From a virus (Duplodnaviria > Heunggongvirae > Uroviricota > Caudoviricetes): DNA of 16,976 nt. Below are positions 2,574 to 16,097 of the stretch, piece after piece. Location of the stretch: the IMG/VR virus record IMGVR_UViG_2913112809_000005; one strand, given 5' to 3'. Below the pieces are notes generated by a model. The model searched no databases. It was not told the origin of the DNA and was given only the letters and a program-made list of their open reading frames with translations. Within the stretch, counting starts at the first letter, position 1; the number at the start of each line of letters is the position of its first letter. A program made the position numbers and the translations under genes.

Positions 2574-2577
2574 ATTT

Positions 2578-4131
2578 TCACCATGATATTTTTACAAAGC
2601 CATCTGAGCCGCGTCCGCCGGAAAAAGATGCTGATGTTTGATTATTTGCTGCACTACCACCAGCACCACCGGCACCATAACCAACGGCATTACCTCCGTT
2701 AGAAAGGGCTAAACCAATCCCCCCTAGGCCATATAGTGAATTCATTCCATTCCCACCAGGAGCAGAGTGTTGGTCAACCATGGTATTCCCACTACCGTTT
2801 CCACCTGTTCCCCCGTAAGCTACGCTGTCAGCAAATGATGAGTTCCCGCCTTGCATGCCATCTGAGGCATGAACATTCCAAAGAATACCTCCAGTTGATC
2901 CCATCTTTGATTCTAATTTTCCCCCTTGACCACCTACACCTCCCGCTCCGACAGTGACAGCGTAATTTGTTCCTGGAATGACTGTGACTATTGATAATTT
3001 TGTTTCTCCGCATTGACCGCCAAAACCCTGCGTACTATATGGAAAACCAGAGTTGCCTTTTGCGTATCCACCGCCACCGCCACCGCCTCCGCCACCGAGC
3101 ATTTCTATAAAAAGTAAGGACACCCCATCAGGAACAGTAAACGTTCCATTGGTGGTAAAGAACTGGATGTGAGAATTCGTTGACCTACTATATGCAGCAT
3201 TAGCCTTATCTATTGCCGCCTTCACCGCGCTCGGTGTCGCCGCCTCCGTCGTACTGTTGCTATCCGTCGCGTTATTAAGCTTCACAATCCCTTTTTGTGT
3301 CAGGGTACCATCCGGAACACCCGTAATCTGTCCCCAGGGATGCGTATGACTACCCGCAGCTTTACTATTCGCCAGGTCATACGCCGCCTTAACCGCGCTC
3401 GGTGTTGCCGCCTCTGTCGTGCTGTTGCTATTGGTTGCGTTATTAAGCTTCACAATCCCTTTTTGCGTCAGCGTACTATCTGGTATATCAGTAATCTGAC
3501 TCCAGGTATGACGATGATTTCGAGCCTCAATCATTGCCGCTTTCACCGCTTTTGGCGTAGCCGCTTTGGTTTCGTCATCACTGTCAGTGGCGTTACTCAA
3601 CTGTGTAAAGCCTTTTTGCGTTAACGTAGCATCAGGATGATTAGTCGAACGCTCATGTTCATCCAGTTGTGAATCAACATAATCCCGTGTTGCCAGTACA
3701 ATACTGGGGTCAACGGTGAGTGTTACCGCAGCCGTGTTGGACACTTCCATAATGAGACGAATGCAAACTTGCTTACCGCAGCCGCCGGGTAATAGCGGTT
3801 TATACGATTCCGGGAATTTACCGATAGCGATCAATTCACCATCAGTATCATAAACGCCAACTTCACGTACATACCAGCCGCCGATATTTTCGGGCAGCAC
3901 GAGTTCCGCAATTAACCAGTTAGGGTTATTTGGTGCAACTGTTAATGTATTTAAATCACCGCGCCATACTTCATGGCGTAATTTAGTTTGGCTGACGGTG
4001 GGTTCATAATATTGTCCTCCGCTGTCGCCAACAGCCATTTTTTGTAGATGAAGCTGTTTTTTATCCGCCAGAGCATTGGCAATTTTTGCCATTCCCCTGT
4101 CGGTGAGTAGAGTATAAAACTCATTATCCAT
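2578..4131 (-). CDS. Tail fibre protein (P2 gpH-like N-terminal baseplate-attachment domain, tandem fibre repeats, glycine-rich C-terminal tip)
   Basis: 517-aa ORF. N-terminus (MAVGDSGGQYYEP...HEVWRGDL...IAELVLPENIGGWYVREVGVYD...ESYKP) matches the conserved P2 gpH / Mu S N-terminal domain. Three tandem repeats of TLTQKG(I/F)..L.NAT.S...EAATP.AVKAA follow. C-terminal about 180 aa is extremely Gly-rich, including a run of 10 Gly. Confidence 0.85.
   Translation of the reverse strand: MDNEFYTLLTDRGMAKIANALADKKQLHLQKMAVGDSGGQYYEPTVSQTKLRHEVWRGDLNTLTVAPNNPNWLIAELVLPENIGGWYVREVGVYDTDGELIAIGKFPESYKPLLPGGCGKQVCIRLIMEVSNTAAVTLTVDPSIVLATRDYVDSQLDEHERSTNHPDATLTQKGFTQLSNATDSDDETKAATPKAVKAAMIEARNHRHTWSQITDIPDSTLTQKGIVKLNNATNSNSTTEAATPSAVKAAYDLANSKAAGSHTHPWGQITGVPDGTLTQKGIVKLNNATDSNSTTEAATPSAVKAAIDKANAAYSRSTNSHIQFFTTNGTFTVPDGVSLLFIEMLGGGGGGGGGGYAKGNSGFPYSTQGFGGQCGETKLSIVTVIPGTNYAVTVGAGGVGGQGGKLESKMGSTGGILWNVHASDGMQGGNSSFADSVAYGGTGGNGSGNTMVDQHSAPGGNGMNSLYGLGGIGLALSNGGNAVGYGAGGAGGSAANNQTSASFSGGRGSDGFVKISW
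3068..3097 (-). repeat. Imperfect hexanucleotide (GGTGGC/CCGCCA)n tract encoding a Gly10 run inside the tail fibre gene
   Basis: Plus strand reads ccaccgccaccgccaccgcctccgccaccg; on the coding strand this is GGT GGC GGA GGC GGT GGC GGT GGC GGT GGA. Confidence 0.8.
3185..3640 (-). repeat. Three tandem, diverged 150-170 bp repeats inside the tail fibre gene (phage tail-fibre repeat units)
   Basis: Near-identical DNA blocks are visible (e.g. ccgcgctcggtgtcgccgcctccgtcgt...ttattaagcttcacaatccctttttgtgtcag versus ccgcgctcggtgttgccgcctctgtcgt...ttattaagcttcacaatccctttttgcgtcag). The protein shows three copies of the TLTQKG...EAATPSAVKAA unit. Confidence 0.8.
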
Positions 4132-4133
4132 AA

Positions 4134-4781
4134 TTACTCCGGGTAAATAGATGTAATTTCAAGGCTCCATTGCCCTGTTCCGTAATAAATCGATGTGTTG
4201 TGCTGTACTTCCCGTATCTGGAAAGGTAAAACCGTCGTCAGTTCACCACCATAAAGTGCACAGCCAATAACAGGAATAGCACTTTGGTTAATGATCCAGA
4301 CGATTAATGCTTCCAGTTTTGAACGTGTGTTTTTATATTCATGAATGAGTTCTACCAAATCATTGAAAAGGTTTTCATCCATACCTTTATCCACCAGCTC
4401 TATATCCACCTTAAAAAAATAAGCCCTTCCCCCATATTCAAACCATTCTGAAATAGTTCCGGGTAATGAGAGTATTTCCAGCACCCGCCGCACCGCCCAA
4501 ATTGTTCCTTTATATTTATGCAGTTCAATGGCTTGTTTAATTAACTCGCGTTTCTCCCGCTCATCGGTGGTAAATAACCAACCTTCCAGCCCCTGAACGT
4601 GAAATTGTTCTGCAAGGGCTGGTAATGCCGAAGCATCAACCAGGTCGACCAGATAAACCATCAACGCCGTCAGATCGAGTTGGGCAAAACGCTCGGCGGC
4701 GATGTTTGCCAGAATGGAAAAACGCTCATCGCTGGCAAGCGGCGGCGGTGGCAGCAATTTATCCATCGCTGACTCCGGCAA
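4134..4781 (-). CDS. Baseplate protein, P2 gpI family (Mu gp48-like)
   Basis: 215-aa ORF with the characteristic N-terminal LLPPP..S....LA motif of gpI-family proteins; sits between gpJ and the tail fibre. True start may be the internal Met at about 4766 (MDKLLPPPP), which would remove the overlap with gpJ. Confidence 0.8.
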   Translation of the reverse strand: MPESAMDKLLPPPPLASDERFSILANIAAERFAQLDLTALMVYLVDLVDASALPALAEQFHVQGLEGWLFTTDEREKRELIKQAIELHKYKGTIWAVRRVLEILSLPGTISEWFEYGGRAYFFKVDIELVDKGMDENLFNDLVELIHEYKNTRSKLEALIVWIINQSAIPVIGCALYGGELTTVLPFQIREVQHNTSIYYGTGQWSLEITSIYPE

Positions 4782-5874
4782 TCGTGACGTCTATTGCGGT
4801 GCATTCCGCCCACTCATGCGCCTGCAAAATACGTTTTGTAGGCATATTCAGCGCAACGTCATAGACGCCATCGACCTGTAACACTTTGATTATCTGGTTT
4901 GGCACAATGTCCTGCCCCAGATGTTTCTGCCGCTGTTGCGTCCAGAGGCTAATCGCTTTACGCGCCGCAGCCAGCGTTGTCTCCTGATCGGCGGTGGTAA
5001 ACAGCATTAGCTGCGCACGGATCTCATACGGCACTCGAAGAGCGCATTTCGCACTCACTTTGTCGGTCAGCGGACGTTTTTTCTCCTTGCTAACCTCCTG
5101 TTCAATTTGCGCGAGCAGTTCCACTCCCGGCAGACCATTCAGCGTTAGCGGGTAGATCTCCACGCAGCCTTCTGGCAATCCCTCGTCCGGCCCCAGTACT
5201 GAAACGTCAATAATCGACTGGCTAACAGAAAGCGTATGGAAGCGGTATGCGCCATAGCTGCCCGCATTACTAAAGCTTTCTGGTGCCAGTTGGATACGCT
5301 GGCGCAATGCGTCATCGCTCTCTTCACCGCAGCCGCCCGTTGACGCAGTCAGGTTGGTTACGTTGATGTCATAATGACCAATCCTGTCGACCAGTGCGCT
5401 AATTTGTGCAGGCTGCCAGCCGTTACCCTGTTCACCTGCTGCGAGGCTGGTGGCAGGAACGGCGATATGCAAACTCCTGGCCGGAAGCAGAACATCTTCA
5501 TCGGTGGCGAACATCACGCTATCAGAGGCACTGGCCCGCGTCCCCTGGGGAATCAGGATATTGCTGGTATACGCACTGACGACCGAAAACTGCAACGTCG
5601 TTTTTGCCGGTTGTGCAGGCAAACGGTGAACGCCCACCAGCTCCCCTAAATAATCCAGCATTGGCGCGCGGGAATACGCGACCAGGTTTTGTTTCGCCGC
5701 TTCCTGAATGGCGATGCGTACAAGGTTTTCACGATAGGCAAACAGGTCGATGAGCAACCGCTCAGCCTGTGCAGGATAGAGTTTTTTACCGCTGGCATCT
5801 TCGTATTGCGCAATCATCTCACTGGTAATTTGCGCTGGATCGCGGTCAATAAAATTGGGTTCGGCTATCGCCAT
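4759..5874 (-). CDS. Baseplate protein, gpJ family (Mu gp47-like, T4 gp6-like wedge)
   Basis: 371-aa ORF in the conserved position between gpW and gpI; size and order match Baseplate_J proteins; overlaps both neighbours in the operon. Confidence 0.8.
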   Translation of the reverse strand: MAIAEPNFIDRDPAQITSEMIAQYEDASGKKLYPAQAERLLIDLFAYRENLVRIAIQEAAKQNLVAYSRAPMLDYLGELVGVHRLPAQPAKTTLQFSVVSAYTSNILIPQGTRASASDSVMFATDEDVLLPARSLHIAVPATSLAAGEQGNGWQPAQISALVDRIGHYDINVTNLTASTGGCGEESDDALRQRIQLAPESFSNAGSYGAYRFHTLSVSQSIIDVSVLGPDEGLPEGCVEIYPLTLNGLPGVELLAQIEQEVSKEKKRPLTDKVSAKCALRVPYEIRAQLMLFTTADQETTLAAARKAISLWTQQRQKHLGQDIVPNQIIKVLQVDGVYDVALNMPTKRILQAHEWAECTAIDVTIAGVSDG

Positions 5875-6224
5875 AACACCTCCGTTGAGTTGATTACGCC
5901 GTCAGCGGCGCGCCATTGCACACGTAACGTCAGATGTTCACCGTCGATTACAGGTGTCACCTTCAGCAACCGACAGCGCGGTTCCCACTGGCGAATGGCT
6001 TCCACCGACTCCCGTACCACATGCGGGATTGCCCGCTCGATGGGGTAATCGATGTAGTGCCACAAATTGCTGCCAAACAGCGGTCTGTGGGGATCACTGC
6101 CGCGCGGTGTACGCAGAATGATGTGTATTGCCTGGTGAATATCATCCAGTCCGCAGACGTATTTTTCAGGCCGCTGCAAGGCCGGTTGCCAGTGCAGCGT
6201 TGAGGGTCGTGTTTTTGTGTTCAT
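5865..6224 (-). CDS. Baseplate protein, GPW/gp25 family
   Basis: 119-aa ORF of the size and position of P2 gpW / T4 gp25 / Mu gp46 homologues, between the spike and gpJ. Confidence 0.75.
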   Translation of the reverse strand: MNTKTRPSTLHWQPALQRPEKYVCGLDDIHQAIHIILRTPRGSDPHRPLFGSNLWHYIDYPIERAIPHVVRESVEAIRQWEPRCRLLKVTPVIDGEHLTLRVQWRAADGVINSTEVLWR

Positions 6225-6297
6225 GAGGGTATTTTCGCCCTGAACGGGCTGCGGGGATATTAAAGCGATTTAGAAAACTGATTGATTAAAAAGAGAA

Positions 6298-6317
6298 AAC
6301 CCGCCATCAGGCGGGTT
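6298..6317 (-). terminator. Intrinsic terminator/attenuator between gpV and gpW
   Basis: 8-bp GC-rich stem AACCCGCC-tgat-GGCGGGTT, 5 nt downstream (minus strand) of the gpV TGA stop at 6323-6325, followed on the minus strand by TTCTCTTTTTAATCAATCAGTTTTCT. Confidence 0.6.
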
Positions 6318-6322
6318 AAACG

Positions 6323-7024
6323 TCAGTGTGAATGGTGGTTGGAGTTGCCACCGCTGTCCTGCAATGCGCCGCTGGCCTGAACGTTGCCGATCACGTTGAC
6401 ATTGCCAGTTATTGTGGCGGCGTTACCGATGCCTCCACTTCCTGCCATCCCGCCAAGCCAGGTGAGTTTTTTCATTACCGTCACGTTACCAGTAAAGGTG
6501 CTCATGGGCGCATCTACCGTCACTGCTGCCGCTTTAACATCGACCTTAGTGGCGTCGATGCTGACATCGGTCGCTTTAACATCGACAGTATCGGAAGTCA
6601 CGATGACCTGTTGGGCTTTAATCTCAACGTTGGGCGATGTCAGGCTGGTACGGTCGATAACCTCAATCACGATTTTCTCGATACCGCCGTTAATCGTCAG
6701 CTGGTGCGTGCTGCGGTCATATTCAAACGCTGCGCCATCAGAAAACTGGACGTAACGTTTATCGCGCGAGGCCACAGGCGCGGTGTCAACCGTAGAATAA
6801 ACTGCGCCCAGCACCACGCCATCTTCACCGTTATTGTCCAGCAGAACTTCCACTTGCTCGCCCATATCCGGTAGCCAGTAGTCTTTATTGTCCTGGGAAT
6901 TGCGTTGAAGTACCGCAAGCCAGTTGCTCTTCAGATTGTCACACTCCGGAAGCGTGACTCGCACCCGAACGCTGGTTTCGTCAATATCGCTGATAATCCC
7001 CGTTTGCCGGGTTACTCCTTTCAT
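6323..7024 (-). CDS. Baseplate central spike, gpV family (Mu gp45-like), with His-rich C-terminal tip
   Basis: 233-aa ORF with an N-terminal OB-fold-like region and a C-terminal repetitive beta-helix-like segment (VDVKATDVSIDATKVDVKAAAVTVDA), ending ...GGNSNHHSH. AGGAGG RBS 7-12 nt upstream. Confidence 0.8.
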   Translation of the reverse strand: MKGVTRQTGIISDIDETSVRVRVTLPECDNLKSNWLAVLQRNSQDNKDYWLPDMGEQVEVLLDNNGEDGVVLGAVYSTVDTAPVASRDKRYVQFSDGAAFEYDRSTHQLTINGGIEKIVIEVIDRTSLTSPNVEIKAQQVIVTSDTVDVKATDVSIDATKVDVKAAAVTVDAPMSTFTGNVTVMKKLTWLGGMAGSGGIGNAATITGNVNVIGNVQASGALQDSGGNSNHHSH

Positions 7025-7033
7025 ATTTCCTCC

Positions 7034-8074
7034 TTACTGGCTGGTCGCTGGCCCGCGCGACACGTCGATTTCAGTGGTATAGCCGCTGCGCACAAAACTG
7101 TGAGTCGATTTATCAATCAGCCACTGACCGGAAAGCACGCCAAAATCGGTCAGTTCAATTTTATTGCCCGCCGTCAGATCCGGGCAGCCCATCATTGTGA
7201 GCGTTCCGGTTTGCTGATATTCGTTGTGGCTGTCGAGTGCAGCGTTGGCCTTTGCCTGTGCTGCGCCAACGTCCGTCGCCCGACTGTTCAGTTTTAGCGT
7301 GTCGGCACTGGTGCCGACTCCACGGGCAGACGGTTTTTGCTGGCTGTCGTGAGTGTAGATAACCAGTTCTTTTTTCTTACTATTTTGATGCTGTACGGTG
7401 GCGTTTTTGTAGATACGGTTAATGGTATCTTTGAAGGTGAAATGCGAAACGTCTTTGCGGTTGATCTTTTTAACCGACGCCAGGCAGCGCAGCGTGGGTA
7501 AATGCGAAAAAATCAGCTCTTTGGTGCTCACCTTTACTGCATAGCCATATTCGCAGGCCAGGCGCTTGAGAAATCCAACATCGGTTTCGCCGTACTGTGT
7601 CACCCGGTCAATCGTCAGCGGCTCGATTTTGCCCACCAGCTTTAGGCCGTGAGTTTGTGCGATACGGCTGGCGATAGCCGAAAGCGTCGTTTCTTCAAAA
7701 CCCTGGCTGTTACGGGTGCGCAGCGCCTGATTGACGGAAGTGGCGATGCCATCAATATTTACCGTAGAAGGTGGCGCTGAAATGTCGATTTTATCAATAA
7801 TATACTGACCACAATCGAGCAGCTTTTCCCCCTGATAACCCATATGCAGCGCCAGCGTATCGCCTTTGCCGGGATACCACTCTTTTATCCAGCGTCCATC
7901 AGTGTCATCCAGTGTAATTGCGATGGTATCTGACTCGTTTTTGATGCTGTCGTGGTAACTGATGCTGGTGACATAGGGTGTGATGTCATAAGTGATATCT
8001 TTATGCCCATACCAGAGGGTAAAAATGGGCGTGAGTGTGGCAAAGACGCCACCAGTTACGCTTATCTCAGCCAT
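7034..8074 (-). CDS. Baseplate hub protein, P2 gpD family (late control gene D protein; Mu gp44-like)
   Basis: 346-aa ORF of the size and position of gpD/gp27-like hub proteins, directly before the spike. Confidence 0.8.
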   Translation of the reverse strand: MAEISVTGGVFATLTPIFTLWYGHKDITYDITPYVTSISYHDSIKNESDTIAITLDDTDGRWIKEWYPGKGDTLALHMGYQGEKLLDCGQYIIDKIDISAPPSTVNIDGIATSVNQALRTRNSQGFEETTLSAIASRIAQTHGLKLVGKIEPLTIDRVTQYGETDVGFLKRLACEYGYAVKVSTKELIFSHLPTLRCLASVKKINRKDVSHFTFKDTINRIYKNATVQHQNSKKKELVIYTHDSQQKPSARGVGTSADTLKLNSRATDVGAAQAKANAALDSHNEYQQTGTLTMMGCPDLTAGNKIELTDFGVLSGQWLIDKSTHSFVRSGYTTEIDVSRGPATSQ

Positions 8075-8274
8075 GGTGGGATCTCCGATAAGGTTTTATT
8101 GACGGAAATGACCGGAATAATGAGCTGAATACCGGAAGGCAGCACCGGGTAAATGGCGACATGTGGATTGGCGGCGATTATGCGTTCATAAGCCAGCGCA
8201 TCACCGTAGTAATGCCATGCCAGATTATCCCAGCGTTCGCTGTCGGTGGTGATATGTTCAAGGTATCGCATCAC
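8062..8274 (-). CDS. Tail protein X (P2 gpX family, LysM-like)
   Basis: 70-aa ORF containing the conserved gpX motif (WD.LA..YYGD....E.II.ANP); ATGA-type overlap with the upstream gpU-like gene. Confidence 0.75.
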   Translation of the reverse strand: MMRYLEHITTDSERWDNLAWHYYGDALAYERIIAANPHVAIYPVLPSGIQLIIPVISVNKTLSEIPPWLR

Positions 8275-9224
8275 CAGCTCCTCGTAATGGTCGCGGCAGC
8301 AAACTGGCTCACTGTGGGAGTGGTTTGTTGTACCGTTGTTCGTGCCTGATCAACCAACGTTGCGGCTTTATCGAACGTCGCTTGGGCGATGCCGCTGGTA
8401 ATGTCGTCGAAAAGCGCCTGAGCATGGTCAACCAGCGTACTGGCGTCATTGGCGCAGTCCCGGATACCTGGCATGTTACCCAGTAAAGCTTTAATCTGCG
8501 CCGACAACGCTTTTGGGAGTCCTGCCAGCGTTTGCAGATCCGTTGGCTGTTTAAACAGGGTTTCGATGGCGTCGATTGTCTTTTTCAATGACGTAATTAT
8601 CTTTTCACACTTTTCTTTTAACGCTTTGGCCTCTTTAATCATTGCTTTCACTTTTGCCACCGTTTTTTTAATATCTTCAATGGCTTGTGTCAGTTCATCC
8701 AGCATCTCTTTGGCCTTACGCATACCTTCTTCAATGGCGTTTAATATCTGATCAAACCAGGACTCCACCATGTCGGGAAAATTGCTCGCCTTTTCCTCAA
8801 TGTTAGGCTCCTGGGTGGTAATCGCCGGAGGTAAAAGTGGATTTTTAGGATCGCCGGTGTACTCCTGGAGCGACATCGTTCCGTTTTGGGCAATCACATT
8901 GCCCCAGGGATCGGTGTGCTGGTGGGTGGCGGTTAGCTCTGTAATTACAAACCAGCCGCGATAATCGCCATTGCCAAATACCAGTGCCATCGCCTTGTGA
9001 GCAAGCATGGCTTCACGCAGTCGATTCAGCTCTGTTGTGGGCTGGCAAAACTGGCTGTGCAGGGAAAATTCCAGCGCCAGTATATCCAGCTTATCGCCAA
9101 TAAACTGCACGCCGGGCTTGCCTTCTATACGGGCATGTGTGGCGTAATCCACGCCCATTGTGCTTTTAAAGCCGTCCCAGAATGTGACAACCTTAAATTC
9201 AATCTCTCCTAAAACGGCATACAT
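8271..9224 (-). CDS. gpU-like tail protein with a roughly 175-aa C-terminal alpha-helical/coiled-coil extension
   Basis: 317-aa ORF. First about 140 aa follow the P2 gpU pattern (M..LG...F......F..........G.P..QF.G...D...L...L......L..L...........G.G...G.FVITEL). The remainder is Lys/Glu/Ala-rich with heptad-like periodicity (KAKEMLDELTQAIEDIKKTVAKVKAMIKEAKALKEKCEKI...). Stop/start overlaps the tape measure gene. Confidence 0.7.
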   Translation of the reverse strand: MYAVLGEIEFKVVTFWDGFKSTMGVDYATHARIEGKPGVQFIGDKLDILALEFSLHSQFCQPTTELNRLREAMLAHKAMALVFGNGDYRGWFVITELTATHQHTDPWGNVIAQNGTMSLQEYTGDPKNPLLPPAITTQEPNIEEKASNFPDMVESWFDQILNAIEEGMRKAKEMLDELTQAIEDIKKTVAKVKAMIKEAKALKEKCEKIITSLKKTIDAIETLFKQPTDLQTLAGLPKALSAQIKALLGNMPGIRDCANDASTLVDHAQALFDDITSGIAQATFDKAATLVDQARTTVQQTTPTVSQFAAATITRSW

Positions 9225-11584
9225 CAGGCATACCCCCGGCGCTGTTGTTGCGCCATTACGTCGTTAATTATTCTTTCCAGTTCGCGTTTACTCATCGTCA
9301 ACACGTTCTGAATCTCTTTAGTATTGTTTGGTCCGTTACCCTGCACGGTAATCTGTGGCGAAAAAGTCACCTGGACTTTTCCAGGGGAACGGGAGGGTAG
9401 CGTCGCCGGTTTGGTTACGGATTTATCTGGTAAAGAGGTCGACGCGAGTTTTGCGGCAGGCACTGATGACGGCGTTGTCGTTTTGCTGGATGGCGCGAGT
9501 TGTTTCCCCACTGGAGGCGTTAAAATCGCACCGGCAACGCCTGGAACAACGGTCGCGGGGGAGACTGAGGCAGAATTAGTGGTGCCTGTAGCAGCCGCAG
9601 CCGATCCTTCTGTGCTGATACCCATTGTGGATTTTAGCCAGTCTGGTATGGCGTTTTTGACCTGGTCAATAATGCCTTTCAGAGCGGGAAAAGCATTCAT
9701 TATGCCGTCAGCCAGGCTACCCAGTATATTGCTGCCGAACTCGCTAAAACTCGCAGGCATCTCAACACCAAACCAATTCATCACTCCGGCAAAGGCGCTG
9801 TAGAACAGCCCCAGTGGCGACCAGTCGCAAATCAAACGGCTAATACCAGCAATACCGCCATTAAAGGCCGTTGTGATACGCAGCCAGATGGCGGAAAAGA
9901 ACCTGGAGATAGGTTCCCAGTTGCGATAAATCAGATAAGCAGCGCCCGCAATCGCAGTGATGACCAGACCAATGGGATTCATCAATAACACCCGGCCTAG
10001 CGAGAGAACGGTTCGACCAACCAGTTTCAATGCTCCGAGCAGGCTACGACCAAGCAGTTGCGTTAGCCATTTTGCGCCGCCACCCAATGACTTAACCGCC
10101 GATAACACCTTACTCGCTGCGCCGCCGAGCGCCAGACTTGCCCTGACTTTCAGGAAGATATCGACCAGACGAATTAACGGCGAGGCGATGAAGTTCGCGC
10201 CCAGCTTTAAAACATTCAGCGCGCCGTTAAACAGCCAAATCGCCCCGACGATTTTCGCAATGTTTTGCACCAGCGCCGGGTGTTCACGTAGCCATGCGCT
10301 GAACTGGCGAACAACCGGAGTAAGGCTTTGCGCCAGCTCGCCAATCAGCGGCATTAATTGCAAGCCAATGCTGAGCCATAAATCATTTAACGCCAGCTGT
10401 AACGCTTTAGTTTGTTCAATGGGCGAGGCCATCTGCGCAGAAAAGTCAGCGTCAATCAGATTCTTACTGCTGGCTTGCATGGCAGAGGCTTTTAACTGGC
10501 GATATTCCTCCATATTCGCCAGCACAGGTGCCAGGAATTCCACTGTTTGCGCATCGCCGAACATTTCGCCCAGATTAAACTGCGTCACCATCGATTGCAG
10601 CGCAGTGCTGCGAGCAGATAAATCTTCAATCTTCATGGTGCGTTTGAAGGTGTCGAGGATCGCCGGATTCATCTTCTCAAGCTGCATTTGCACGATATGA
10701 GTCATGGCTTCGCTAACACCCATACCGTTTTGCTGATGCTCAAGCAGAGAACCTTGCAGATCAACGCCCTGGCTGGCGAACCAGTTATCGGTTTTTTTCG
10801 AAAAGGTGGTTTGCAGAAAGTGGTCGAAATTCTCCGCCGCCGCACTGGCACTGGCCCCGTTTTTTATGGCGATCTGCATGGTGGCGGTCAGTTCAGCCAT
10901 ACCTTCCAGACCCTGAGCGCCGATTTTACCTGCAAATTTCTCTATCCACTGCGTTTGTTCGGCAACGGCAGGCCCACCGCTTTTGCTAATGCCATACATC
11001 ATGTTTTGCGCGGCGTGGAAATTTTCTGGGGCAATATTCAGTCGATCATGAGTCGCGAGCGCGGCATTCGCCCACGTTTCAGCACTTTCGCGCGTGGCGG
11101 TGGCAGCTTTGGCGATCTCCGGCATATAACGGTTGAGATCCTGCATCGACGACAAATTGCCTTCGATCAGCGTTTGGGCTGCGTTCTGTAAGGTGGTCTG
11201 CTGCTGGTTAAAATCCATGCTCCAGCCGCGCAGATTAAGGCTGAGCGTCTCGCGGGTTGTAGCATTCATCCCACCTTTGGTCGCCATATTGACCATGTTG
11301 TCCTGGAACTCATATGGCAACTTCCAGTCGGGGGCTTCAACATTGAATACCTTGCTAAATTGCCCGGCAAATGTTTGGGTTTTCTCCATTAGATCAGCGC
11401 GGTTCCGGCTATTTTCCTCCAGGCGGAGAGCAGAATCGGCAAGTTGCTGCGTTAGTTTGATTACTGTCGCTTGCTGAGAAGAGAGAGCTAACAAAGTTCT
11501 GGCGTTGAGTGAGCCGTAACGGGCTATTGCCTGCGTCAACGTCTCATTACGCGCCTGAAGCTGGGTAATAATATCGTTGGCCAA
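9224..11584 (-). CDS. Tail tape measure protein
   Basis: 786-aa ORF, largely alpha-helical with internal hydrophobic segments, between the chaperone gene and gpU as in all long-tailed phages. Apparent initiator is TTG at 11584; the first in-frame ATG is about 66 codons in, so the exact start is uncertain. Confidence 0.85.
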   Translation of the reverse strand: MANDIITQLQARNETLTQAIARYGSLNARTLLALSSQQATVIKLTQQLADSALRLEENSRNRADLMEKTQTFAGQFSKVFNVEAPDWKLPYEFQDNMVNMATKGGMNATTRETLSLNLRGWSMDFNQQQTTLQNAAQTLIEGNLSSMQDLNRYMPEIAKAATATRESAETWANAALATHDRLNIAPENFHAAQNMMYGISKSGGPAVAEQTQWIEKFAGKIGAQGLEGMAELTATMQIAIKNGASASAAAENFDHFLQTTFSKKTDNWFASQGVDLQGSLLEHQQNGMGVSEAMTHIVQMQLEKMNPAILDTFKRTMKIEDLSARSTALQSMVTQFNLGEMFGDAQTVEFLAPVLANMEEYRQLKASAMQASSKNLIDADFSAQMASPIEQTKALQLALNDLWLSIGLQLMPLIGELAQSLTPVVRQFSAWLREHPALVQNIAKIVGAIWLFNGALNVLKLGANFIASPLIRLVDIFLKVRASLALGGAASKVLSAVKSLGGGAKWLTQLLGRSLLGALKLVGRTVLSLGRVLLMNPIGLVITAIAGAAYLIYRNWEPISRFFSAIWLRITTAFNGGIAGISRLICDWSPLGLFYSAFAGVMNWFGVEMPASFSEFGSNILGSLADGIMNAFPALKGIIDQVKNAIPDWLKSTMGISTEGSAAAATGTTNSASVSPATVVPGVAGAILTPPVGKQLAPSSKTTTPSSVPAAKLASTSLPDKSVTKPATLPSRSPGKVQVTFSPQITVQGNGPNNTKEIQNVLTMSKRELERIINDVMAQQQRRGYA

Positions 11585-11675
11585 AATTGTTTCTCTTTAA
11601 TTATTGATAATGGCCCACTGGTTATTTTTCTAAAAAAGGGGCTGGGAAGAAATAAACCTGGCGGGCTTTGAAGAA

Positions 11676-11698
11676 CTCGCAGACATCAGGTCTGCGAG
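11676..11698 (-). other. Strong stem-loop in the gpE-tape measure intergenic region
   Basis: Perfect 9-bp inverted repeat CTCGCAGAC-atcag-GTCTGCGAG; on the minus strand it encloses the stop codon (11686-11688) of the +1 frame that overlaps the 3' end of the gpE gene. Confidence 0.6.
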
Positions 11699-11773
11699 CC
11701 ATATTCGATCTTTATTTGGTCGCTGGCTTCATCCAGCCAGTTGCTAAAGTCATCTATGGTGAGCGCGTCTATC

Positions 11774-12091
11774 TCACTGGGTGGAAAGCGAAACCATCTC
11801 GCCAGTAGCGCCATTGCCTGCCATAGCTGGGGAGGATTCTGTAACCACGGTAAGCATGGATTGAAATCGTTTCTGCAATGCCTGGTAATCCAGCAAATCC
11901 ATTTCAGCTAAATCTTCTGGCACCAGTCCGGTCATCGCCGCCATTAGCGGTTCATCCCACTCTTCGGGTTTTTCGCTGATCCGGCGCGCGTTGCGCATAT
12001 CTTTTACTTTCAGGCGACGTAATTGCAGCGAGTCGATAGTATTTCCTGCTGCCGACGTAAATGGGAACTGTAAGATATAATGCTCTTTCAT
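11774..12091 (-). CDS. Tail assembly chaperone, P2 gpE family
   Basis: 105-aa acidic ORF between the tube and tape measure genes, the conserved position of the frameshifted chaperone pair. An alternative reading frame stays open past its stop (see findings). Confidence 0.7.
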   Translation of the reverse strand: MKEHYILQFPFTSAAGNTIDSLQLRRLKVKDMRNARRISEKPEEWDEPLMAAMTGLVPEDLAEMDLLDYQALQKRFQSMLTVVTESSPAMAGNGATGEMVSLSTQ

Positions 12092-12117
12092 TTTGTATCC
12101 TTATTTATGTTGCGAAG

Positions 12118-12137
12118 TTCGGGGCCGTAGCCCCGAA
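12118..12137 (-). other. Stem-loop immediately downstream of the tail tube gene
   Basis: 8-bp GC-rich inverted repeat TTCGGGGC-cgta-GCCCCGAA between the tube stop (12141-12143) and the gpE start (12091); no clear U-tract follows, so more likely an mRNA-processing/stability or partial-attenuation element than a full terminator. Confidence 0.45.
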
Positions 12138-12140
12138 TAA

Positions 12141-12665
12141 TTAGCCACCGATGTTATTGCGATAGGTACTTAATTGATCCACGCCGTTAACCCGAAAAAT
12201 ATTCGCCATATAATCAAGTTCAAGCAGCGTTTCACCATCGACCACTTGCTTAATATAAGTACAGCCAAAGGCGCTGCTGAATTCCGGGTTTTCATTCTGT
12301 TTAAATGTGCCCAGTGGATTCTTTTTAAACATCACGGTTAAATGTGTCACTAACGCTAATTGATTCGCTTTCCCCTGGGAGTTATAGCAATCAATACTGG
12401 AGCGGCACTGTAATGCTACCGCCTGCCACGGGTTTGCCGTTTTACGCATTACGTCCTGATAAAAGGAGTTCCATTTAATTTCCCCCTCCAGTTTATCGAA
12501 ACCAGCCGGGAGTTCGATTTTGCCGACCATACCCAGTGCCTTATGCTCTTGCATAATTAAACTGACATCAGGCAATTTAATTTCGGTTGCACGACCTAAA
12601 AGGTTATTACCATCGAGATAAATATTGGCGTTGGTAATACGGTTAATTTGAATTTTTCCAGCCAT
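12141..12665 (-). CDS. Tail tube protein (P2 FII family)
   Basis: 174-aa ORF; size and N-terminal pattern (N.N.YLDG...LG...EIKLP) match FII-type tube proteins; start overlaps the sheath stop. Confidence 0.8.
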   Translation of the reverse strand: MAGKIQINRITNANIYLDGNNLLGRATEIKLPDVSLIMQEHKALGMVGKIELPAGFDKLEGEIKWNSFYQDVMRKTANPWQAVALQCRSSIDCYNSQGKANQLALVTHLTVMFKKNPLGTFKQNENPEFSSAFGCTYIKQVVDGETLLELDYMANIFRVNGVDQLSTYRNNIGG

Positions 12666-14095
12666 TAGCTATTGCTCTCCAGAGAGACTAAATATTCAGA
12701 AGTAATTTCAGTTTCAAACGTCAGACGTTCCAGCGGCGGCGGCGGGGTGAATTTATAGCTCAGCAATAAATGACCGGCGCTGAGTTCAGCCGGTGAATTT
12801 CGTGCCGGATCGTACCAGCACTCAAAGCCAAGCAGTGCGCCGTCGGCAATTAGTTTTCGGCCCCAGGTATTTACCGATTCGGTCAGTGCGTCAATAATTG
12901 CCTGATTAATAGGCATATCAATATACTGCTGACTGAAATAACGGATTGACTCATTGATTACATCGCCTGTCCGGCGGACGTTTTCAAAGTTACGCATATG
13001 GGTCACGGTAGGCCATGCCGCTGTGCGGTTACCCCACAAGCGCAGACCAGAACCGTAACTATTGAAAATAGTGGTAATGCCGTTTTCGTTGAGCTGATTC
13101 ACTTCGCTTTGTGGATCATCAATCATTGCGGAAAGCGAACGTTCAATACCGGTAATACCCTGAATTTCCTGGTTTGAGTTGCTCCACCAGAAACCTTTTT
13201 CGAGGTCTACTTTGGCACGTAGCCCGGCAGCGCGCGAAGAGAGTGGTTCGAGAACTTCCTGGTTAGTGATGCCATCGTAAACTTTGACGTGTGGGTAACA
13301 TAAACGCACACGATCAGAGCTGGTATTGAAGTTGATAGCCCCTTGCGAACCGCGTCCAGCCAATACCTGCTGGAATGTCGTCCCAATCGGAGCATCAATG
13401 TAGGTAATCGCACCGAGTTTTTCCGCTTGTGCAATCAGCTCAGTAGTTACTGATTTTTGCGTACAAAACACGGGAGCAAGCAGGATTTTGGCGTAGAAAC
13501 CGTACAGGTTATAGGTGTCCTGAAGGAGTTTCATCCCCGTGCGGTCGCCTGCGGTATTTAGGGCACCGATAATATCGGCTGCGGTGACCTTTGTAGGGTC
13601 GCACCAGGAATAATAGGCGCAAACTTTCGCTCCAGGAGGAATGTCGGCTCCTTTACGAGTGATTATGCCTGTTTGTTCATCTACGCTAAATGCTGTGGTG
13701 TTAAAGGTTGATGAATTTGATGAAGAGGGCTTTAGTACCACGTTACGCACATTGCGGTGAGCGAGCTTCGCCTGGTTGTTAGCATCAAAAGTGATACTCT
13801 CATTGCTGATGCTGGAGCTATGTTTTGCCGGATCCAGCACGTTAATCACCACCACCGTACCGGCACCGTGGTCATAAATCGCCTTCAGTGCCTGTGGGAT
13901 CGTAAAGTTAGCCAGAGTCGAGCCAAACTGCGCAGCATCGCTTTCAGAAAGACATAATGTTGGTTTATTTACCGGACCACAGGGGGCCGTACCGATTAAA
14001 GCGATGACGGCGGATTTTACCGCTTTAACCGGACGAGGGCCGGTTTCAATTTCAATGGTTTCTACACCGTGCAGGTAATTAGCTGCCATGTACAA
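12665..14095 (-). CDS. Contractile tail sheath protein
   Basis: 476-aa ORF directly upstream of the tube gene; size and position are typical of myovirus sheath proteins (P2 FI / Mu L class). Confidence 0.85.
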   Translation of the reverse strand: MYMAANYLHGVETIEIETGPRPVKAVKSAVIALIGTAPCGPVNKPTLCLSESDAAQFGSTLANFTIPQALKAIYDHGAGTVVVINVLDPAKHSSSISNESITFDANNQAKLAHRNVRNVVLKPSSSNSSTFNTTAFSVDEQTGIITRKGADIPPGAKVCAYYSWCDPTKVTAADIIGALNTAGDRTGMKLLQDTYNLYGFYAKILLAPVFCTQKSVTTELIAQAEKLGAITYIDAPIGTTFQQVLAGRGSQGAINFNTSSDRVRLCYPHVKVYDGITNQEVLEPLSSRAAGLRAKVDLEKGFWWSNSNQEIQGITGIERSLSAMIDDPQSEVNQLNENGITTIFNSYGSGLRLWGNRTAAWPTVTHMRNFENVRRTGDVINESIRYFSQQYIDMPINQAIIDALTESVNTWGRKLIADGALLGFECWYDPARNSPAELSAGHLLLSYKFTPPPPLERLTFETEITSEYLVSLESNS

Positions 14096-14276
14096 TTTCC
14101 TCTACGTTATTTTGTTCTTCCTGAGTGATGACAGGAGTCAGATGATTGCGGGCAATCATGGTTATGACCCACTCGTTGTCTTCTGGCAGATCAATTTCAC
14201 TGTTCGGCCACAATAAGATTTCTTGTCCGTCGGCAAGGGTGACGCCGCTTGCCGGGCCGTTGTAGATGTATTTCAT
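14079..14276 (-). CDS. Small conserved tail-region protein (Mu gp38-like position)
   Basis: 65-aa ORF, coupled by a 4-nt overlap to the upstream gene and overlapping the sheath start. Confidence 0.45.
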   Translation of the reverse strand: MKYIYNGPASGVTLADGQEILLWPNSEIDLPEDNEWVITMIARNHLTPVITQEEQNNVEEIVHGS

Positions 14277-14728
14277 TCAGTTTCCTCGTAATTAACTTCC
14301 GTAAGCAGGGGAAGATCCGTGCTTTCCTGTTCAGCGATAAACAGCGAGCTGGTCGCCATTTCCAGGATGTAGCGGCAGAAACCGCCGCTCTCACCCGTAT
14401 TAATTTCTTTTTCAAGCCAAAGCAGACGATCGCAATCAGGAAGCTGAAGGCCACCCAATGCTCTGCGTATGCGATCAAGAGCGTTTAACGCGTCACAATT
14501 TTTGCCAACAATAACGGTGGCGGTTAAGCGGAGTATTTGCTGTTGCACGATGGCATCACTGCTTTCGGGCGTGGCAAAGAAAGAACCGCTATAATTAATA
14601 ATCACTGCAACTTGCTGTGTCTGTGGAATATATTTCTGGGCATCCGTAGCTGAAATAAATACGTCCATTTCGGGGTTGTGTTCACGTAATCTGGTCACAA
14701 CAGAATTCATTACAGATAAAATTTCCAT
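14273..14728 (-). CDS. Putative tail completion/terminator-type protein (Mu gp37 / DUF1834-like); first gene of the tail operon
   Basis: 151-aa ORF with an AGG-containing RBS upstream; position and N-terminal pattern (ME.L..M...VV.RL) recall Mu gp37-family proteins. Functional call is tentative. Confidence 0.45.
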   Translation of the reverse strand: MEILSVMNSVVTRLREHNPEMDVFISATDAQKYIPQTQQVAVIINYSGSFFATPESSDAIVQQQILRLTATVIVGKNCDALNALDRIRRALGGLQLPDCDRLLWLEKEINTGESGGFCRYILEMATSSLFIAEQESTDLPLLTEVNYEETE

Positions 14729-14842
14729 ATGGGTTGTACCTTAATTACCGCTCACTTCGTTATCGTTGAAATATATTCTGAAGCAGTGAAGGTGAAGAAT
14801 CTTTTAATGTAATTTAGAGAAAAAATTGAATGGCTATAAAAA

Positions 14843-14870
14843 ATCCCCACACTTACGTAAAGGTGGGGAT
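14843..14870 (-). terminator. Intrinsic terminator after the lysis cassette (potentially bidirectional)
   Basis: 8-bp stem ATCCCCAC...GTGGGGAT with an internally palindromic loop, beginning 4 nt after the TAA stop at 14875-14877; followed on the minus strand by TTTTTATAGCC and on the plus strand by GTATTTAATA. Confidence 0.7.
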
Positions 14871-14874
14871 GTAT

Positions 14875-15189
14875 TTAATAGCTGCCACGTTGTAACAGCT
14901 CGATTTTGCTATATAAGGCATCCAGCTTTGCTTCTAATACTGCTTGCCCACGAAGATAATCTTCTCTGCGGACATAATGCAGCGGAAGCTCGGCACGAAA
15001 TTCAAGAAACTCTCTTTCCAGTTTCGACCAACTTGTTTCTGATTCCCTGCGGGCATTTTCCAGAGACTCAAAACGCTCATTAAGTCGTTTTTCAATTTGC
15101 GCTAACAGCAGTTTTCCGGCAGCAAACATTAATCCAACGAAGGAAAGCATAAGGGAGATCACTTCCCAAAAATCGATACTGAGTTTCAT
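14875..15189 (-). CDS. Membrane-anchored coiled-coil protein, candidate spanin-like/lysis accessory protein
   Basis: 104-aa ORF with one N-terminal hydrophobic helix (FWEVISLMLSFVGLMFAAGKLLL) followed by a charged helical region; GAGGGG RBS; directly downstream of the lysin gene. Confidence 0.45.
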   Translation of the reverse strand: MKLSIDFWEVISLMLSFVGLMFAAGKLLLAQIEKRLNERFESLENARRESETSWSKLEREFLEFRAELPLHYVRREDYLRGQAVLEAKLDALYSKIELLQRGSY

Positions 15190-15201
15190 CGGCCCCTCTG
15201 A

Positions 15202-15807
15202 TTAGTGAAGACAGCTTGCCTGTCCCCAGAGTAAATAGCGGGCGGCGTGTAGATAGAGGATCATCTTTGGATAGCGACGATTTTCTCGCCAGTTAGCAGC
15301 GCTGCGCCCGGCGTTGACTCGCTCGACATGACCAAACCAGCTAGTGGCATCTAACCCTTTGGATGCAGCTAGTTTTTTATCCCGGTTAACCCACCCCTGA
15401 CCGCCGTTATAGGCGCTTAGGGTAAACGCCATACGCTGACAGTCATTTTTCGCAGAGATGTTTTTCCACAAATGCTGGTCATATTGCACCAGCGCGCGAA
15501 TCGCCCAGGTTGGGTTATACGGTTTGTTTTCACGCAATTGTGGATACAACTGGCTTATCCATGTCGCTGTAGCAGGCATAAATTGCGCCATACCTTGTGC
15601 GCCAACGGGGGAACGTACCATTGGCTGCCAGGCGGACTCCAGGTGTAATTGCCCGGCAAAGTCGGCCACTGGGGCATTCAGCCCCCAGACTTCTCGAGCG
15701 GTACGAATTAGTTCGTTTCGCCATGCCAGAGAGGCTCGCGGCGGTTCAGAGGCGTTAAGCGGGAAAAGAACGAAAATAATCATAGACGCGATATATTTCA
15801 GCCACAT
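15202..15807 (-). CDS. Lytic transglycosylase (SLT domain) lysin with N-terminal signal/SAR-like hydrophobic leader
   Basis: SLT catalytic motifs LHLESAWQP and AQGMAQFMP. Best start is ATG at 15807 (MWLKYIASMIIFVLFPLNA...), 2 nt after the stop of the upstream membrane-protein gene; the longer ORF to 15885 would overlap that gene by 76 nt. Confidence 0.7.
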   Translation of the reverse strand: MWLKYIASMIIFVLFPLNASEPPRASLAWRNELIRTAREVWGLNAPVADFAGQLHLESAWQPMVRSPVGAQGMAQFMPATATWISQLYPQLRENKPYNPTWAIRALVQYDQHLWKNISAKNDCQRMAFTLSAYNGGQGWVNRDKKLAASKGLDATSWFGHVERVNAGRSAANWRENRRYPKMILYLHAARYLLWGQASCLH

Positions 15808-15809
15808 CA

Positions 15810-16097
15810 CTATAGCCCTAAGGCGACGGAAAGACAGACGGCGGCAACGATGATGGCGCGGCGAATCATTGCCGCCGCGCAGCAACGCGGTTCCTTCCAG
15901 GGGCTAAAAGAGTCAGGCCGTGCCCAGGGGAACAAACTGCGATCGAGCCAGTATCCCAGCACCGCGGAAAGCGAAACCAGGCTTAGTTTATAAATGACGA
16001 CCGGGATCTGTGCTGAAGAGGTCCAGCCGATCACGACAAACAGCGCGACGGAAGCGACCAGCCAGCCGGAAAGCCGGGGAAAAGTGACTTTTTTCAT
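15810..16097 (-). CDS. Small membrane protein with 2-3 transmembrane segments, holin candidate
   Basis: 95-aa ORF with AGGAG RBS 8 nt upstream of the ATG; hydrophobic segments LVASVALFVVIGW, IPVVIYKLSLVSLSAVLGYWL and AIIVAAVCLSVALGL; first gene of the lysis cassette, directly before the lysin. Confidence 0.5.
   Translation of the reverse strand: MKKVTFPRLSGWLVASVALFVVIGWTSSAQIPVVIYKLSLVSLSAVLGYWLDRSLFPWARPDSFSPWKEPRCCAAAMIRRAIIVAAVCLSVALGL

Follow-up and report, generated by a model that had tools for sequence, protein, structure and literature searches.

The window, the whole 16,976-nucleotide stretch of DNA that was analysed, belongs to a prophage-like element of E. coli and carries every gene on the minus strand. 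The element is found in 196 of 5,426 complete E. coli genomes. It has no head genes, and every ORF for tail or lysis functions in the window is open. Between the genes for the tail tube (12665..12141) and the tape measure protein lies an ORF for a gpE-like tail assembly chaperone, and the gene order is that of phage P2, i.e. sheath, tube, E, E', tape measure, U, X, D. The protein matches Pfam family PF10109 (Phage_TAC_7) over residues 6-80 with 71 bits. This is the N-terminal chaperone domain of the E/41/14 family, which scores 71-80 bits against a cut-off of 25. RefSeq calls gpE a 'phage tail assembly protein', and both RefSeq and nearly all other sources annotate the 105-residue protein only. 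A scan of 11400-12300 against Rfam gave no match. The features of the locus are collected in Table 1.

Table 1. Features of the chaperone locus in the window, in the direction of transcription.
Feature	Position	Strand	Details	Basis
gpE-like tail assembly chaperone ORF, zero frame, predicted major product	11774..12091	-	105 aa; stop TGA 11776-11774	ORF list
Proposed +1 cassette AAA_CGA_UUU_CAA, codons 74-77	11861..11872	-	UUU_C 11866-11863; CGA 11869-11867	
+1-frame extension	11686..11865	-	UUC 11865-11863, 57 more sense codons, stop TGA 11688-11686	Frame table, fusion translation
Invariant TGG (Trp), +1 frame	11845..11847	-	Six codons past UUU; entropy 0 (first position of zero-frame codon 82, 1.95 bits)	
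Short C-run CCCC	11829..11832	-	1-nt indel hotspot, not the conserved shift site; C6-C7 in some E. coli relatives	
E' core domain, fusion residues 93-125	11716..11814	-	MALLARWFRFPPSEIDALTIDDFSNWLDEASDQI	PF06528 sub-threshold match, hhalign
Hairpin	11674..11700	-	GGCUCGCAGAC-CUGAU-GUCUGCGAGUU; E' stop in the 5-nt loop	Folding, clade comparison
Spacer, E' stop to tape measure start	11585..11685	-	101 nt; contains the hairpin 3' arm and an SD-like GAG(A) at 11595-11592	
Tape measure gene	9224..11584	-	786 aa; TTG start 11584-11582	ORF; Pfam PhageMin_Tail, TIGR01760

The original prediction was that gpE departs from the usual −1 frameshift arrangement of tail chaperone genes, and the reading frames bear this out. 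The −1 frame is closed by a TAG one codon past the gpE stop. No X_XXY_YYZ heptamer is present in the correct frame within gpE, the sole XXXYYYZ sequence being AAACCCG at codon 41, which is in the wrong frame. The +1 frame (equivalently the −2 frame) is open as had been described, from about codon 62. It begins just past a TAG at 11910-11908, level with codon 61, and extends to the E' stop, with 43 codons overlapping gpE and 29 codons beyond the gpE stop. By a rough estimate an open +1 frame of 74 codons has a probability of ∼3% of occurring by chance, and alone is only mildly unlikely. It is significant because it is conserved and homologous to E', rather than for its length alone.

Joining residues 1-75 of gpE to the extension gives a predicted gpE-E' fusion of 134 aa, compared with 142 aa in P2. 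This product is absent from RefSeq and from the phage records inspected, and no chain in the PDB is related to it by sequence. The Pfam profile PF06528 (Phage_P2_GpE) matches the E' of the window with 18.6-20.6 bits, under its cut-off of 23, and a +1-type relative reaches 39.8 bits. Comparison of the +1-frame extensions with E' sequences encoded in the −1 frame, including that of P2, using hhalign gave a probability of 99.2% and E = 8.8e-20. By homology the product of the +1 frame corresponds to P2 E', and the predicted fusion has the same PF10109 + PF06528 architecture as P2 E+E'.

We compared ∼125 related loci from Enterobacterales, Burkholderia (BcepMu), Pseudomonas and Neisseria/Kingella. 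The open +1 frame that the original prediction sought in orthologues is present throughout; E' always lies in the +1 frame, and in most cases lacks its own start codon. The arginine following Trp-Phe in the +1 frame is encoded by CGC, AGA, AGG or CGG, and the zero frame at that point reads Ser, stop, Gln or Pro. The +1 frame thus appears to be under strong purifying selection across several proteobacterial orders.

The same alignments locate the change of frame. The most variable codon position is the third position of the zero frame as far as codon 72, and becomes the first position from codon 82. The invariant TGG of the +1 frame marks a point at which selection on that frame is already acting, and in the Pseudomonas and BcepMu fusions a Trp-Leu/Val/Ile/Met pair is found 3 codons past the UUU of codon 76. 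In one relative (L046) the +1 frame opens just 3 codons before the Phe codon, and in another (L062) the zero frame has a stop 7 codons after it. The stop codons and the switch in variability together bracket the change of frame between −3 and +7 codons around UUU. The UUU_C site is 29 codons before the gpE stop. Recoding that is non-canonical and leads into the +1/−2 frame, as originally proposed, therefore has strong comparative evidence, but the site is not near the gpE stop or the hairpin where it had been expected.

In-frame TTT_C occurs once in gpE, at codon 76, and TTT followed by C occupies the Phe76 column in all 98 distinct +1-type genes. The arginine codon at position 75 is CGA in 85 of 86 cases, compared with 0 of 98 at the conserved Arg26, and where position 74 is lysine it is AAA in 73 of 74. 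Third-position entropy is 0.38 bits at the cassette, compared with 1.1-1.35 elsewhere. Only two contexts are seen, CGA_UUU_CAN and NNN_UUU_CGN, and UUU_CGN is present in all 12 of the non-CGA contexts. TTT is kept even where the flanking genes of Burkholderia and Pseudomonas mostly use TTC. Phe76 is itself invariant as an amino acid in the +1-type genes and TTT accounts for 68% of Phe codons in the window, so that part of the TTT signal could arise from protein constraint and codon bias. The motif is missing from 14 relatives whose E' is read in the −1 frame; the Phe76 column here contains Val, Met, Leu, Ile or rarely Phe, and 13 of these relatives have the lambda-type heptamer G_GGA_AAG. We consider it probable, from the sequence comparisons, that the locus encodes the E/E+E' chaperone pair of a BcepMu-type contractile-tail module, and that the fusion is made by a +1 slip at CGA_UUU_C in codon 76.

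The fusion might be made by some other event, in which the ribosome slips by −2 or changes frame at another place in the overlap. The +1 and −2 slips reach the same frame, and phage Mu undergoes a −2 shift at CGG_GGG_CGA (PMC3498833, PMC5009743). Our first candidate was the C-run within UCC_UCC_CCA (11838-11828), where tRNA-Pro could re-pair by −2 from CCA to CCC, or could slip by +1; the window has CCCC here, and this run is longer in some E. coli relatives. In-frame fusions in the databases have their junction exactly at the C-run, with TESS|LLWQ and TESP|LLWQ in P0001 and P0002 respectively. The run is not conserved, however, since Salmonella and others read GAA CCC ACA GCA, AGC AAC GAA and similar sequences at this position. 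Moreover the invariant +1 Trp lies upstream of it, and in three relatives (L088/L089 and L062) the zero frame ends before or at the run. The C-run was therefore rejected. For a −2 slip nearer to UUU, reading of the sequence reveals no codon that would permit re-pairing, and there is no Mu-type homopolymeric run for it within the bracketed interval. Such an event is thus very unlikely. The original prediction had left the choice between +1 and −2 open; the frame is the same for both, and codon-anticodon re-pairing favors +1.

Translation of E' as a separate 42-aa protein from the ATG at 11814, making a frameshift unnecessary, is similarly improbable. The window and its closest clade do have that ATG, and its Met is where the Pfam match to E' begins. 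In addition, the GenBank record of BcepMu (AY539836), in which gp41 is the counterpart of gpE and gp42 is the E' ORF in the +1 frame, lists gp42 as a gene with its own start, and postulates slippage that leads from gp42 to gp43 and so returns to the frame of gp41. Yet the Met is internal and is not conserved; most relatives have Gln or Ala codons there, within QAQGLLARW, KAQALLARW or EAAAILARW. The only candidate ribosome binding site is a weak AGG, and at 2 nt before the ATG its spacing is too short. The +1 frame is selected and open far upstream of the ATG, back to UUU_C, and the homologous domain of P2 is annotated as made only within the E+E' fusion. In BcepMu we suggest, unlike the reading in AY539836, that gp41 is linked to the frame of gp42 by a +1 shift at UCC_UUU_CGC.

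We give still less weight to the idea that the long form originates in a homopolymer, by slippage of RNA polymerase or by DNA indels (phase variation). The databases contain five singleton proteins in which a 1-nt indel has joined the two frames, and in Apirhabdus (L035) the frames are fused by a 1-nt deletion just upstream of the site. But the overlap in the window contains no homopolymer longer than A5 or C4, the fused alleles are rare singletons compared with hundreds of 105-aa alleles, and conservation falls on UUU_C and the Arg codons that flank it rather than on any homopolymer. Least credible of these explanations is that the +1 ORF is a relic, with the 105-aa gpE alone made and needed and the hairpin and TTG start tuning expression; the prevailing annotation and the lack of head genes would agree with a decaying element, which may be a remnant whose tail genes no longer matter, but strong selection on the +1 frame would not persist in a relic over several proteobacterial orders.

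Given a +1 slip at CGA_UUU_C, most ribosomes would terminate at the gpE stop, having made the 105-aa chaperone. A small minority would slip by one nucleotide at codon 76, with tRNA-Phe re-pairing from UUU to UUC. Alternatively Phe-tRNA might bind UUC out of frame while CGA is weakly paired with tRNA-Arg(ICG) in the P site; the two routes would yield an identical protein. The shifted ribosomes would then read through E' to its TGA and release the 134-aa gpE-E' fusion. The product after the shift would start NPCLPWLQ..., with a predicted junction of ...QKR-F-NPCLPWLQNPPQLWQAMALLAR and a predicted tryptic peptide FNPCLPWLQNPPQLWQAMALLAR. If the pair works as in lambda G/GT and P2 E/E+E', binding of the tape measure protein would fall to the N-terminal domain that both products share, and tube subunits would be recruited by E'. 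Infrequent slippage would keep the short product in the large excess over the long one that is required. The A-site codon in Enterobacterales is CAR, which is neither a stop nor notably rare, and its +1-frame equivalent is sometimes the rare AGG. The efficiency may therefore be very low. We infer a stimulatory role for CGA from its position and conservation. [quoted passage not shown] The site is not of the prfB type; the A-site codon is CAA, and there is no SD-like sequence upstream in GCATTGCAGAAACGA.

A sequence UUU_Y is known to be prone to +1 shifting in bacteria (PMC5009743), and the family resembles the PA-X site of influenza A virus, UCC_UUU_CGU, where the tRNA slips in the P site on UUU_C with effects of a CGN A-site codon and of the E site (PMC3498833). 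Both have the UUU_C core with restricted flanking codons. Relatives of the window have NNN_UUU_CGN, and the BcepMu site is UCC_UUU_CGC. PA-X also lacks a 3' structure, and low efficiency would suit the biology (PMC3498833, PMC5009743). RNAalifold applied to 120 nt 3' of the site in 31 diverse sequences gave −0.9 kcal/mol and no covarying pairs, and the region after the shift site in the window alone has a folding z = −0.69. This absence of conserved 3' structure fits low-efficiency sites of the PA-X kind. PA-X differs in being a system of a eukaryotic virus, whereas in the window and in Enterobacterales CGA lies 5' of UUU (in the E or P site) and CAR is in the A site. We found no published experimental test of the latter arrangement in the +1-frameshift literature surveyed.

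Among phages, P2 shares the gene order, domain architecture and homologous E', but its −1 shift takes place on T_TTT_TTG, six codons ahead of the stop of E, and its E' overlaps the start of T. In the window E' is in the +1 frame, the shift site is much further from the stop and the hairpin-containing spacer precedes T. The phage Mu gp41 chaperone is described as having a −2 frameshift (Xu, Hendrix and Duda 2004, as cited in PMC3498833 and PMC5009743). As in the window, the extension is in the +1 = −2 frame ahead of the tape measure gene, and the Mu site includes CGA. However, the Mu site is a G-run on which tRNA-Gly re-pairs by −2, and the window has no such run. Mu gp41 has a borderline match to Phage_TAC_7 of 24.7 bits, and its extension has no significant similarity to the +1-type E' sequences. 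The window would share with lambda G/GT the logic of a short and a long chaperone made in a set proportion ahead of the tape measure gene, but the G_GGA_AAG of lambda is absent from the window, where the −1 frame is closed. Members of the window's own chaperone family in Pasteurellaceae and Moraxella have exactly G_GGA_AAG.

On this reading the locus is an unannotated variant of the well-known phage chaperone frameshift and not a new kind of system. The description of the recoding as unusual needs qualifying, given that −1, −2 and +1 shifts are all documented for tail chaperone genes (PMC5009743, PMC10274946). The chances appear about even that CGA_UUU_C and its sister UUU_CGN constitute a dedicated and widespread prokaryotic +1 signal of the PA-X type, replacing the −1 heptamer across a contractile-tail lineage (BcepMu-like phages, prophage remnants and possibly tailocins). 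The inosine-wobble codon CGA would then stimulate the shift from the 5' side, from within the E site or, in the P site, through weak pairing that lets Phe-tRNA bind out of frame. If so this would be a natural bacterial PA-X-like cassette, and a single family would have switched between −1 and +1 recoding. Within the family, Pasteurellaceae and Moraxella have G_GGA_AAG (−1); UUU_C (+1) is found in Enterobacterales, Burkholderia, Pseudomonas and most Neisseria/Kingella loci. The division provides a natural comparison of slips that reach the required low ratio of products. The near-absolute occurrence of the rare CGA 5' of UUU leads to a testable hypothesis on inosine-wobble effects on frame maintenance in bacteria. 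Related prophages and phages share the same unannotated arrangement, which could be annotated by a rule requiring a PF10109 gene, an in-frame UUU_C flanked by CGA or CGN, and an E'-like +1 ORF. Any engineering of tailocins or phage tails from this module must keep the frameshift intact.

The hairpin and the TTG start are present as originally predicted, but are clade-level features separate from the recoding signal. The hairpin has a perfect core of 9 bp (11698-11690 with 11684-11676) extended by two G-U pairs to 11700-11674, and the region around it has a folding z = −3.3. It is kept in 13 members of the clade, with a consensus of −15.9 kcal/mol and one compensatory pair (A-U to G-C), and the stop codon in the loop varies between TGA, TAA and TAG. 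Farther clades lack it. Its restriction to the closest clade, and its position ∼165 nt downstream of codon 76, argue against any part in the recoding. The stem is strong and conserved. It is followed by UUCUUCAAAG in the window and by UUUCCU among relatives, and for lack of a U-tract a terminator scan makes no call. The hairpin is a clade-specific 3' element following E', possibly acting as a leaky terminator or a stabilizer of the mRNA. The distance from the E' stop to the tape measure gene is 93-110 nt in the close clade. An in-frame TAA lies four codons ahead of the tape measure TTG, which is also the start given by RefSeq. The TTG is an ordinary weak start, and is conserved in the close clade together with the N-terminal sequence ANDIITQLQARNET. 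Together with the TTG start, the hairpin at the E' stop plausibly lowers expression of the tape measure gene relative to the genes upstream.

The reading frames around the gpE tail chaperone gene, which lies among genes that are all on the minus strand (see table), are arranged as originally predicted. The −1 frame closes at a TAG one codon beyond the gpE stop, and gpE contains no in-frame X_XXY_YYZ heptamer. The +1 (equivalently −2) frame is open from just after one stop codon to the next, with 43 codons overlapping gpE and 29 codons past the gpE stop. Within the +1 frame, a 42-amino-acid ORF matches, at a score below threshold, Phage_P2_GpE, the Pfam family that corresponds to the E′ part of P2 E+E′.

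Features of the tail operon and of the gpE region
Feature	Coordinates	Strand
Operon	16097..1516	(-)
Mor-type activator, divergent from operon	16635-16976	(+)
Holin, SLT transglycosylase, Gp37-family protein	upstream end of operon	(-)
Tail sheath	14095..12665	(-)
Tail tube	12665..12141	(-)
gpE, Phage_TAC_7 chaperone, 105 aa	12091..11774	(-)
TAG preceding the open +1 frame	11910-11908	
Proposed +1 shift site, CGA_UUU_C	11869-11863	
Invariant +1-frame TGG (Trp)	11847-11845	
C-run	11832-11829	
Hairpin, perfect 9-bp core	11698-11690 / 11684-11676	
TGA closing the +1 frame	11688-11686	
Tape measure start codon, TTG	11584-11582	
Tape measure protein, 786 aa	11584..9224	(-)
P2 U, X, D, V, W, J, I homologues, then tail fibre	downstream of tape measure gene	(-)
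gpU-like protein, 317 aa	8271-9224	(-)
GT4-family glycosyltransferase	1-1047	(-)

We compared 138 related loci taken from species genomes and viral contigs. In ~125 of them the +1 frame, counted from that of the chaperone gene, stays open and encodes the conserved peptide ...LLARWFRFQPSEIDxLxxDDFxxWLxEAxxQIK.... Enterobacterales, Burkholderia (BcepMu itself included), Pseudomonas and Neisseria/Kingella all contribute such +1-type loci. A profile of the +1-frame extensions matches that of −1-frame E′ sequences, P2 E′ included, with a probability of 99.2% and E = 8.8e-20, and the joined gpE-E′ and P2 E+E′ share one two-domain architecture and are similar in size (134 versus 142 aa). For the Arg that follows Trp-Phe in the +1 frame the codons CGC, AGA, AGG and CGG are all used, and read in the zero frame (that of gpE) this point is Ser, stop, Gln or Pro. 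Such a pattern of substitution, with synonymous Arg codons set against a changing zero frame, indicates selection on the +1 frame at the level of protein. The Met that opens the 42-amino-acid ORF of the window is Gln or Ala in most relatives. E′ thus lacks a conserved start codon to itself, and ribosomes have to enter it from gpE. It is very likely that ribosomes shift into the +1 frame and so produce a gpE-E′ fusion. The recoding event that had been proposed stands in substance, but its placement moves to codon 76, its direction would be +1 rather than −2, and the hairpin and TTG start that had been linked to it are separate matters.

The position of the shift is bracketed by three independent lines of evidence, i.e. 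stop codons, codon-position variability and synonymous conservation. The +1 frame of one Pseudomonas locus opens just three codons before the conserved Phe76 codon of gpE, and the zero frame stops seven codons after Phe76 in one Kingella locus and eight codons after it in two enterobacterial loci. Up to codon 72 the most variable position is the zero-frame third (1.1-1.35 bits), and from codon 82 on it is the zero-frame first (the third of the +1 frame). The +1-frame TGG is invariant, and the zero-frame codon that overlaps it is GTG, ATG, CTG or TTG. In the Pseudomonas and BcepMu fusions the conserved +1-frame Trp comes three codons after the Phe codon.

Codon choice was examined in 98 distinct +1-type genes. 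Phe76 is TTT in 98/98, and the next base is C in 98/98; TTT makes up 68% of Phe codons among the window genes, and TTC predominates in the genes flanking the Burkholderia and Pseudomonas loci. Where codon 75 is Arg it is CGA in 85 of 86 cases, whereas the conserved Arg26 is CGC, CGT or CGG and never CGA. Lys74 is AAA in 73 of its 74 Lys codons. Just two contexts were found, CGA_UUU_CAN in Enterobacterales and NNN_UUU_CGN elsewhere, that of BcepMu being UCC_UUU_CGC. E′ lies in the −1 frame in 14 relatives, from Pasteurellaceae, Moraxella, one Neisseria and one alphaproteobacterial metagenome bin. The Phe76 column of these 14 holds Val, Met, Leu, Ile and rarely Phe, and in 13 of them the stop is preceded, by a few codons, by the lambda-type heptamer G_GGA_AAG. 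The UUU_C motif evidently co-varies with the frame arrangement of E′. The −1-type locus of Neisseria montereyensis (L047) has GAC TTT TTT TCA, a seven-T run, at the Phe column and not G_GGA_AAG. UUU_CGC and the +1 arrangement are seen in other Neisseria and Kingella loci; the frame arrangement has switched within a single genus, Neisseria.

A single tRNA-Phe (anticodon GAA) pairs more strongly with UUC than with UUU, and CGA is decoded by inosine-adenine wobble. In bacteria, UUU with a pyrimidine after it is documented as a site that shifts +1 with particular ease (reviewed in PMC5009743). Mass spectrometry of influenza PA-X has demonstrated that tRNA-Phe slips +1 from UUU to UUC, at a site where CGN is preferred in the A site and the E-site codon exerts an effect (PMC3498833). 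Given the shift-prone nature of UUU_Y, the PA-X precedent and the preference of tRNA-Phe for UUC, we propose a +1 shift at CGA_UUU_C. Judged from sequence conservation, +1 at UUU_C is probably the correct site and direction. The shifted product would read ...LQKR-F-NPCLPWLQNPPQLWQAMALLARWF... up to the TGA, and FNPCLPWLQNPPQLWQAMALLAR is the predicted tryptic junction peptide, directly after ...LQKR. This long form would be a minor species of about 15 kDa, present at roughly 1-5% of the level of the 11.5-kDa gpE. CGA might serve to loosen the E site. Alternatively, it could itself form a weak P-site pair, with Phe-tRNA binding UUC directly; both routes would generate an identical protein. A −2 shift would reach the same frame, but there is no option for re-pairing near the site. 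No conserved RNA structure was found 3′ of the shift site, nor any match to an Rfam family. This fits a site of low efficiency, as required by a chaperone ratio of tens to one; the short:long ratio is about 30:1 for lambda, and the value for Mu is about 2.2% (PMC5009743, PMC3498833).

A database search with the gpE-E′ fusion returned almost exclusively 105-aa proteins. It included five singleton in-frame fusions created by 1-nt indels, two of them at the C-run. The run separates the shift site from the E′ core, and its length in E. coli relatives varies between C4 and C7 (loci L065 and L068); the database fusions P0001 and P0002 have their junction exactly there. It may be an indel hotspot. 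In Apirhabdus apintestini (L035, CP138906.1, locus about 1690-1730) one nucleotide is missing four codons before UUU_C, which permanently joins the frame of the gpE N-domain to that of E′; the product is a constitutive 134-aa fusion, and short gpE is lost. A viral contig (L120, IMGVR_UViG_2734481909_000003) lacks one nucleotide of a G-run within E′. Either deletion could be a sequencing error or a sign of decay, or could serve as a natural experiment on whether the short form is needed.

Programmed frameshifting in tail chaperone genes is classic, and this kind of system is already known. The recorded shifts include −1, −2 (Mu) and +1 (PMC5009743), and hundreds of forward shifts have been annotated in actinobacteriophages (PMC10274946). 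The present case differs from known pairs in that a P2-type E/E′ pair has E′ in the +1 frame, and in a PA-X-like UUU_C slip site with a conserved flanking Arg codon, located 29 codons before the gpE stop. Neither RefSeq nor the phage records inspected annotate a gpE-E′ product, and the BcepMu GenBank record joins ORFs differently from a link between gpE and the +1-frame E′. The value of the result is mainly for annotation and for recoding specialists. In BcepMu (L002, AY539836, 1577-2082) and Pectobacterium (L010-L021) there are 210-275 nt between the E′ stop and the tape measure start, the latter taken from a first-start-codon scan. BcepMu gp43, the annotated slippage product, falls within this gap and resembles a GC-rich Arg/Gly/Ala ORF. 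Either there is a small gene here, or the tape measure start has been set too far downstream. Bg_9562 is reported to be an antifungal 'prophage tail-like protein' that Burkholderia gladioli secretes, and appears to be the protein to which PMC5581363 and PMC8944631 assign a Phage_TAC_7 domain. If it is that protein, it is a member of the chaperone family of gpE.

The TGA closing the +1 frame lies in the loop of a hairpin with a perfect 9-bp core, as predicted, and the surrounding region has a folding z = −3.3. The hairpin is kept in the closest clade (E. coli, Salmonella, Superficieibacter, Dryocola and Phytobacter; gpE roughly at least 75% identical) with a consensus energy of −15.9 kcal/mol. 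There is one compensatory pair change, from A-U to G-C, and the loop stop codon is TGA, TAA or TAG. The hairpin is absent from clades farther than this one; some distant clades have a different, GC-rich hairpin just past the stop. It is not a frameshift stimulator, because it is ~165 nt downstream of the shift site. A terminator scan did not call the hairpin, which has no proper U-tract. A putative role as a leaky terminator, or as a 3′ stabilizer of the sheath-tube-E transcript, is plausible. The TTG predicted to begin the tape measure ORF is also the start chosen by RefSeq. This codon and the N-terminal sequence ANDIITQLQARNET are conserved in the clade that has the hairpin, with an SD-like GAGA 8 nt upstream. 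As a start codon this TTG is weak and unremarkable, in keeping with the few copies in which tape measure proteins are made.

Of 5,426 complete E. coli genomes, 196 contain a chromosomal element that shares ~99% identity with the window DNA; there, the RefSeq annotation is limited to the 105-aa 'phage tail assembly protein'. E. coli S10 is one strain with the element. Among named phages, BcepMu-like ones (Bcepmuvirus) are nearest. Besides a lysis cassette (holin, SLT transglycosylase), the window contains an entire contractile-tail module and the divergent Mor gene; head genes are missing from it, also between the lysis and tail genes, and related IMG/VR contigs are only 13-18 kb. The element looks like a BcepMu-derived, tail-only entity, i.e. 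a tailocin candidate or prophage remnant. Salmonella carries it too, its sheath and tube genes being STM4213/STM4212 of strain LT2. The match of the gpU-like protein to P2 GpU is limited to the first ~123 residues, and the remainder gives many weak coiled-coil-type Pfam matches. It looks like a long C-terminal extension beyond the GpU match, P2 U itself being ~160 aa (480-nt CDS). The glycosyltransferase gene (matching 'GT4-conflict') is directly 3′ of the tail fibre and fibre-assembly genes, and could be cargo of the element or a flanking host gene.
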